Sequence record: OR844578
Reading direction: 5' to 3' (one strand)
DNA: 51,807 bases
From: Escherichia phage ECO26.1 3-1
Shown: piece by piece, positions 2,931-3,259 of the stretch
Layout of the letters: every line of letters begins with the position of its first letter
Numbering within the stretch: position 1 is the stretch's first letter
Position numbers and translations under genes: made by a program
Notes under the pieces: generated by a model
Seen by the model: only the letters and a program-made list of their open reading frames with translations
Databases searched by the model: none
What the model was told of the DNA's origin: nothing

Positions 2931-3259
2931 ATGAAACATATCAAGAGTTTATCACTGAAGTTACATTATCTGCGGAACAGAAAGCTGCTATCGAAGAAGG
3001 TAAAAATCCCAAAGTAACATATAAAGTAAATAGTAAAGGCGTTTTTGATGGCTTGGTTCAAGACCCTGAATTGAAAAAAGCTCTTTCTAAAACTAATGCG
3101 TACTTTGCTCCTAAATTTAACACAGCCGGTGTACTTATTGGATTGGATGTATTCAACTCTAAAGGTGTTCTATCTAATGCCTTTGGTTATGCCGCTAACA
3201 AAATTACCAAAGCCGCATGGGAATCCAATACCAAACAAGCTCAAAAGCCTAGAGTATAA
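2931..3259 (+). pseudogene. fourth internal-protein paralog with frame disruption right after the ATG
   Basis: ATG 2931 is followed by aaacatatcaagag; CTS frame (K)TYQEFITEV... is open from 2924 to TAA 3259 but is +1 relative to the ATG; one extra A in the A-run would restore MKTYQEFITE. Confidence 0.45.

Follow-up and report, generated by a model that had tools for sequence, protein, structure and literature searches.

The internal proteins of phage T4, IPI, IPII and IPIII, have a small basic mature part preceded by a 10-residue N-terminal capsid targeting sequence (CTS). According to the rule established for T4, CTS residues 4 and 7 are responsible for targeting and residues 8 and 10 for processing by gp21 (PMC9026906). 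Ip1, Ip2 and Ip3 are non-essential proteins that are injected, and each acts as the inhibitor of one particular type IV restriction enzyme of the GmrSD type (PMC12373910). The ipIII gene can be lost without cost on a laboratory host, yet it is needed on ECOR17 (PMC9391042).

We analyzed a gene of this kind in a stretch of 51,807 nucleotides from Escherichia phage ECO26.1 3-1 (OR844578), here called the window. By megablast, the window belongs to the genus Mosigvirus (RB69-like T-even phages); phage moskry came out as its closest relative overall, at 98.3%, and no identical record came up. Judged from its sequence, the gene is the orthologue of RB69ORF123c and would encode a 109-aa basic protein with a T4-type CTS, except that its reading frame is shifted directly after the start codon. 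It resembles the genes for T4 IPI to IPIII in the 10-residue N-terminal CTS with Tyr4, Phe7 and I-x-E, in the small basic mature part, and in its position in the denV/e internal-protein cassette region. It differs from them in having no sequence similarity past the CTS and, in the window, in a CTS that cannot be translated. Overall, the locus holds a CTS-bearing gene that is known but uncharacterized, in the form of an ordinary null allele (or one that appears to be null), and it lies in a region known for gene turnover.

The reading frame in the window and in related phages

The features of the locus and of its neighbors are given in Table 1. Window positions 2921-2940 read TAG-GGACAAA-ATG-AAA-CAT-A. 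The earlier note had reported that ATG 2931 is preceded by a ribosome-binding site and that its frame stops after 28 codons, and both observations were borne out. The peptide read from this ATG starts with MKHIKSLSLK, has a pI of 11.4 and is without a CTS. The conserved frame opens past TAG 2921-2923 and reads GQN-ETYQEFITEVTLSAEQK… to TAA 3257-3259; from position 2933 it begins with ETYQEFITE, followed by 99 more residues. No ATG, GTG or TTG was found in this frame ahead of TTG 3053. The offset of the conserved frame from ATG 2931, given as +1 in the earlier note, is in fact +2, i.e., −1, so that a ribosome would need a −1 slip to enter it. The proposal that one extra A restores MKTYQEFITE proved right: with one A added to the run at 2934-2936, a gene of 109 codons is obtained.

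Table 1. Features of the frameshifted gene and of the neighboring internal-protein genes (window coordinates)
Feature	Position	Strand	Details
Paralog 1	1507..1788	+	93 aa, PHROG 3499 'internal head protein', intact
Paralog 2	2267..2527	+	private ATG→ATT at 2267-2269; only ATG 2273 left
Paralog 3, upstream neighbor	2591..2905	+	intact; MKTYKEFIAE, 104 aa, 'Ip10' in JK36, PHROG 3966
Shine-Dalgarno region AGGGAC	2922..2927	+	window-private A→G at 2925; AGGAAC in 13/13 aligned relatives
Frame opened by ATG	2931..3017	+	28 codons, MKHIKSLSLKLHYLRNRKLLSKKVKIPK, stop TAA 3015-3017
Conserved frame, −1 relative to ATG	2933..3259	+	108 codons plus stop; orthologue of RB69ORF123c / moskry_141 / JK36_00121
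CTS remnant E-TYQEFITE, lacking Met-Lys	2933..2959	+	Tyr, Phe and I-x-E encoded, but the ATG cannot reach them
A×3 run, site of the 1-nt deletion	2934..2936	+	A×4 in relatives, Lys2-Thr3 = AAA-ACN
First canonical start (TTG) in the conserved frame	3053..3259	+	68 aa, no CTS; nearest AGG 13 nt upstream

A comparison with related phages had been suggested as a check, and it gave a uniform result. The run was A×4 and the gene intact in 16/16 relatives read directly (JN02, RB69, F31, GADS24, moskry, JK36, NBG1, SSE1, UGJNEcP2 and seven further assemblies, with metagenome and ENA assemblies included). In the DNA alignment, ATG-AAAA-CAT in JN02, RB69, F31 and GADS24 stands against ATG-AAA-CAT in the window. 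An intact 330-nt CDS is annotated at the locus in relatives (RB69ORF123c, moskry_141, JK36_00121 and others). When 90 nt were used as a megablast query, all matches listed spanned at least 1 nt more than the query, with the exception of SSE1; in SSE1 the missing base sits in the upstream spacer, and the run itself is A×4. In a tblastn search, 76 records carried the protein at an identity of at least 95%, and the matches listed aligned from residue 1 in one piece. At least nine phages (SF, PTK, mar005P1, NBG1 and others) encode a protein 100% identical to the repaired product. The A×3 allele was absent from deposited phages among the matches listed by megablast and tblastn. As the run is A×4 in all 16 relatives and the megablast and tblastn rows are in frame, A×3 is private to the window. 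Exact-pattern scans of IMG/VR for A×3 and A×4 matched neither allele, and the same was true of a gapped pattern for the two alleles run against contigs from metagenomes and genomes. Where contigs encode an identical DNA polymerase, their identity to the window was only 96.5-97.8%.

The Mosigvirus orthologues (RB69ORF123c, moskry_141, JK36_00121 and NBG1_119; PHROG 3966) occupy the same slot, between the Ip10-like gene and vs.8. Once the A is restored, they share 98-100% amino acid identity and the CTS MKTYQEFITE with the gene in the window. In the window, by contrast, the run is A×3 where theirs is A×4, the ATG is out of frame, and the Shine-Dalgarno region bears the private change at 2925. 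The frame is broken relative to intact orthologues and no alternative start preserves function, as is characteristic of a recent null allele.

Identity of the gene and turnover of the internal-protein cluster

Locally, the genes run in the order Nudix e.1, lysozyme e, an internal-protein gene, denV, two further internal-protein genes, the frameshifted gene and vs.8. CTS-type N termini are encoded at four loci, namely, 1507, 2273 (MYQEFIIE), 2591 (MKTYKEFIAE) and 2931, in agreement with the description of the gene as a fourth internal-protein paralog. Its identity as a CTS-bearing internal protein, also put forward in the earlier note, was upheld by orthology to RB69ORF123c and by the PHROG matches. 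Both the repaired protein and its upstream neighbor match PHROG 3966 end to end. The N terminus of the repaired protein also touches PHROGs annotated as 'internal head protein', and it has a weak match to PHROG 2667 there. A Pfam search with the repaired protein returned no family. The N terminus MKTYQEFITE is a perfect fit to the CTS rule, with Tyr4, Phe7 and Ile/Leu-x-Glu at positions 8 and 10, and the frame of the ATG as written has none of these residues. On this reading of the letters, the gene is ancestrally a CTS-bearing member of the internal proteins, and the present allele is predicted to be unable to express the CTS.

The mature part of the intact protein is predicted to have 99 aa, a mass of 10.7 kDa and a pI of 9.7, and its peptides include VTLSAEQK… and ALSKTNAYFAPK…. 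The repaired protein is 33% identical to the neighboring paralog over 76 aa, largely through the CTS. A structure prediction of the intact protein, made from a 4-sequence alignment, had a mean pLDDT of 49.7. The Mosigvirus orthologues are all annotated only as 'hypothetical protein', and a literature search found no paper that mentions RB69ORF123c. A homologue search with the intact protein gave two clusters only. A cluster from Logan assemblies, with 88 member sequences, has a 125-aa version in which an N-terminal extension of 16 residues (MDNSWAIPWPKFRENK) precedes MKTYQEF. This version is probably a gene-calling artifact or the product of a different upstream junction; if the extension were real, the CTS would be internal.

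The cluster is variable among Mosigviruses. The slot after the Ip10-like gene holds the 109-aa gene, IpII (PF26874), IpIII (PF26861), or IpIII together with the 109-aa gene, and in 4/17 genomes the 109-aa gene (paralog 4) is replaced by IpII or IpIII. In the cassettes of this slot, the upstream spacer and the DNA that encodes the CTS (ACAATAGGAACAAA-ATGAAAACATATCAAGA…) are nearly identical and could act as handles for recombination. Two genomes, ERZ19211333 and UGJNEcP2, have a broken paralog 2. In RB69, paralog 3 (RB69ORF124c; RB69 AY303349 piece, 332-604) carries a +1 insertion, GCTAAAG→GCTGAAAG, and is truncated to 90 aa. Like the gene in the window, these broken paralogs are dispensable members of the cluster, and the frameshifts or deletions that they carry are each private to a lineage. 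They differ from it in that their lesions are internal or 3' and lie outside homopolymers, whereas the lesion in the window is at codon 3 and takes away the whole product, CTS included. Paralog 2 of the window has a private change as well. The start ATG-AAA-ATG, encoding MKMYQEFIIE with a full 10-residue CTS, is found in 16/16 relatives; in the window it is altered by a private G→T at 2269. The CTS of the remaining product is two residues shorter, with Tyr and Phe shifted from positions 4 and 7 to positions 2 and 5.

Several further observations were made on and around the cluster. The CTS of RB69 ORF123c reads MKTYQEFIAA, with Ala in place of the Glu for gp21 processing at position 10 (RB69 AY303349 piece, 673-1002). 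In T4 IPIII, a change at CTS position 10 stops processing but not targeting. The T4 late-promoter sequence TATAAATA was not found in the internal-protein cluster. Between the frameshifted gene and vs.8 lies a non-coding spacer of 170 nt (3260-3431), which appears by eye to be richer in GC than its flanks; it has clustered small indels relative to moskry at 3355-3381 and a weak sigma-70-like site at 3367-3395. The predicted fold of this spacer was worse than that of shuffled sequences (z=+2.0), i.e., the spacer is unstructured, and an Rfam search of the window gave no match. Window positions 4987-5398 and 7485-7861 had no megablast match to moskry and appear to be small cassette replacements in the vs/regB-tk accessory region.

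Mutation, consensus error or alternative expression

The earlier note had left three options for the shifted frame: an inactivating deletion, a sequencing error and slippage-dependent expression. The first two still stand, with the deletion favored on indirect evidence, and the third does not. We consider that the window probably carries a real, lineage-private null mutation in which one A was lost from the A×4 run; the indirect tests described below lean towards a change located in the phage DNA and not merely in the consensus. A possible, though less probable, explanation is that the phage is truly A×4, with an intact gene, and that one A was dropped in base calling, assembly or polishing.

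The tests that bear on this choice drew on the quality of the record as a whole. We counted 256 substitutions private to the window over 44.7 kb (159 synonymous and 55 non-synonymous); they fall at codon positions 3, 1 and 2 in 160, 40 and 14 cases, respectively, and none creates a nonsense codon. Because selection has shaped the private substitutions in this way, the consensus cannot be called noisy, and the private branch of the window, of about 0.57%, is real. This strong signature of selection speaks against a consensus error, and so does the scarcity of indels: the comparison of the window with moskry over 51.8 kb gave five isolated indels only, three intergenic and two coding. Two of the intergenic runs, T9 at 27151-27159 and A8 at 39538-39545, are in any case polymorphic in length among relatives (T6-T9 and A5-A11, respectively). 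The coding indels are A4→A3 in the frameshifted internal-protein gene and T3→T5 at 10526-10530, and both affect short runs. The window contains 237 homopolymer runs of at least 5 nt, and none of those within genes is disrupted. An error-prone platform is disfavored, as homopolymer failures would be expected first at the 237 long runs and not at A4 or T3. Among the moskry ORFs, 111/114 are full length in the window, including every large replication gene; in this count, the internal-protein gene with its frameshift at codon 3 passed the coverage filter. The other three are a 157-aa gene (see below), an unannotated 61-aa ORF that is matched in part, and an ORF without a match.

The two polymorphic intergenic runs lie in different settings. 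The T run at 27151-27159 is the T tail of a terminator-like hairpin. The A run at 39538-39545 abuts the ATG of a gene for a 386-aa peptidase-U32-like protein, and the spacing from Shine-Dalgarno to start varies there between phages.

The consensus-error reading draws on the nature of the change. A ±1 change in a homopolymer is a classic consensus error, A×3 was found in no other deposited phage among the matches listed, and the flanking coding sequence is otherwise identical to that of relatives. In addition, the hypermodified DNA of T-even phages (arabinosyl-hmC in RB69, PMC6024577) can disturb some platforms. There is also a second window-private frameshift, T×5 at 10526-10530 as opposed to T×3 in moskry, JK36 and NBG1, and this T×5 version was matched by none of 91 database records. 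It splits a conserved gene for a 157-aa membrane protein (moskry_119 / JK36_00099, PHROG 944; window 10394-10869) into ORFs of 48 aa and 139 aa, and the protein is 100% identical on either side of the shift. The gene-position index has no record of the 139-aa or the 48-aa ORF. The pair of private frameshifts could equally mean two errors. Against this, T3→T5 adds two letters to a run of only three, not a typical homopolymer miscall, and the private changes nearest to the internal-protein starts, A→G at 2925 in the Shine-Dalgarno region and G→T at 2269 (ATG→ATT of paralog 2), are substitutions and not run-length errors. A real mutation is further favored by the flux of the internal-protein cluster elsewhere (RB69 paralog 3, paralog 2 in two genomes and paralog 4 in 4/17) and by the non-essential nature of internal-protein genes (PMC9391042; PMC12373910).

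Three other candidate arguments were set aside. No further private change is present in the 325 nt downstream of the frameshift. This is weak evidence against a real mutation, and a lack of downstream decay is uninformative as a discriminator, given that the branch rate predicts P(0)=0.16. A second argument, that the two frameshifts are real because both affect non-essential genes, does not discriminate, as about three quarters of the coding sequence is non-essential by a rough, uncomputed estimate. Finally, the distance of 9 nt between the Shine-Dalgarno substitution and the deletion does not amount to significant proximity: among six changes, P is about 0.21 that some pair lies so close.

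Two further readings would leave the A×3 allele with a product. A CTS-less protein of 68 aa might be made from TTG 3053, the first canonical start in the conserved frame, and act in the cytoplasm after infection. In its favor, IPIII retains activity without its CTS if the host expresses it beforehand (PMC9391042). However, this start, which had been proposed as an alternative to the ATG, has no proper Shine-Dalgarno sequence, the product would lose 40 conserved residues, and the 68-aa protein is absent from the gene-position index. Moreover, a non-packaged inhibitor would come too late to protect incoming DNA, as can be expected from the mechanism of the internal proteins (PMC12373910). We therefore regard translation from TTG 3053 as very unlikely.

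Recoding, either by a −1 slip at AUG-AAA-C or by RNA polymerase slippage adding an A, is the least credible of the readings, and we give it almost no weight. The arithmetic alone matches programmed −1 frameshifting of the E. coli dnaX type and transcriptional slippage: a slip of −1 on AAA puts ACA next and gives exactly MKTYQEF…, re-pairing of tRNA-Lys on GAA (one G·U and two A·U pairs) is conceivable, and a Shine-Dalgarno sequence lies 7 nt upstream. Unlike those systems, the window has no slippery heptamer, stimulatory structure, long run or conservation at this site. The shift site is AUG-AAA-CAU, i.e., U-GAA-ACA, which is not an X-XXY-YYZ heptamer, and positions 2937-3036 fold at −8.9 kcal/mol compared with a shuffle mean of −10.4 kcal/mol (z=+0.57). 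The A run at 2934-2936 has only three residues, and the nearest other run is A4 at 2928-2931; transcriptional slippage needs an A/T run of roughly 8-9 or more. The two-frame arrangement was present in 0/16 relatives read and in none of the 60 megablast rows listed. As no relative read has the shifted arrangement, there is no sign of selection for recoding. The locus does not represent a new expression mechanism; what the window shows is an ordinary knockout of a dispensable gene, or else a slip in base calling.

Consequences for the phage and for Mosigviruses

By analogy with T4 IPI to IPIII, the intact protein of the relatives would be loaded into the prohead core by means of its CTS, trimmed after I-x-E by the prohead protease gp21, and injected with the DNA as a basic protein of about 10.7 kDa. 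The T4 counterparts suggest that, once injected, it most plausibly blocks a host type IV (GmrSD-like) restriction enzyme. Under the favored reading of a real mutation, one A would have been lost in this lineage from the A×4 run at Lys2-Thr3. Ribosomes would still start at ATG 2931 and yield only the basic peptide of 28 residues, leaving the conserved frame without a usable start. Because function would depend on packaging and the CTS is lost at codon 3, the allele would be a complete null even with some re-initiation downstream. The phage would remain viable since the gene is dispensable, and its host range is probably slightly narrower.

As the one mildly unusual feature of the locus, three of the six window-private changes within 2260-3440 lie in the translation-initiation regions of internal-protein genes (post hoc binomial p of about 0.005). 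These are the ATG→ATT change of paralog 2 and, both at the frameshifted gene, the A→G change in the Shine-Dalgarno region and the A deletion. A host defense that senses these internal proteins would be expected to lead to such a pattern, as would a cost of hundreds of unneeded inhibitor copies on the propagation host. An adaptive silencing of the injected proteins, to which the frameshift would contribute, seems doubtful to us for this lineage.

The frameshifted gene opens no new mechanistic question. Annotators should neither overlook the locus nor repair it silently, and should enter it as an orthologue of RB69ORF123c that is frameshifted and possibly pseudogenized. The set of functional injected proteins encoded in the window is probably smaller than that of its relatives. 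Since each of T4 Ip1 to Ip3 neutralizes one specific GmrSD enzyme (PMC12373910), losing a single internal protein can remove specific hosts, and such losses matter when Mosigviruses are chosen for therapy or biocontrol.
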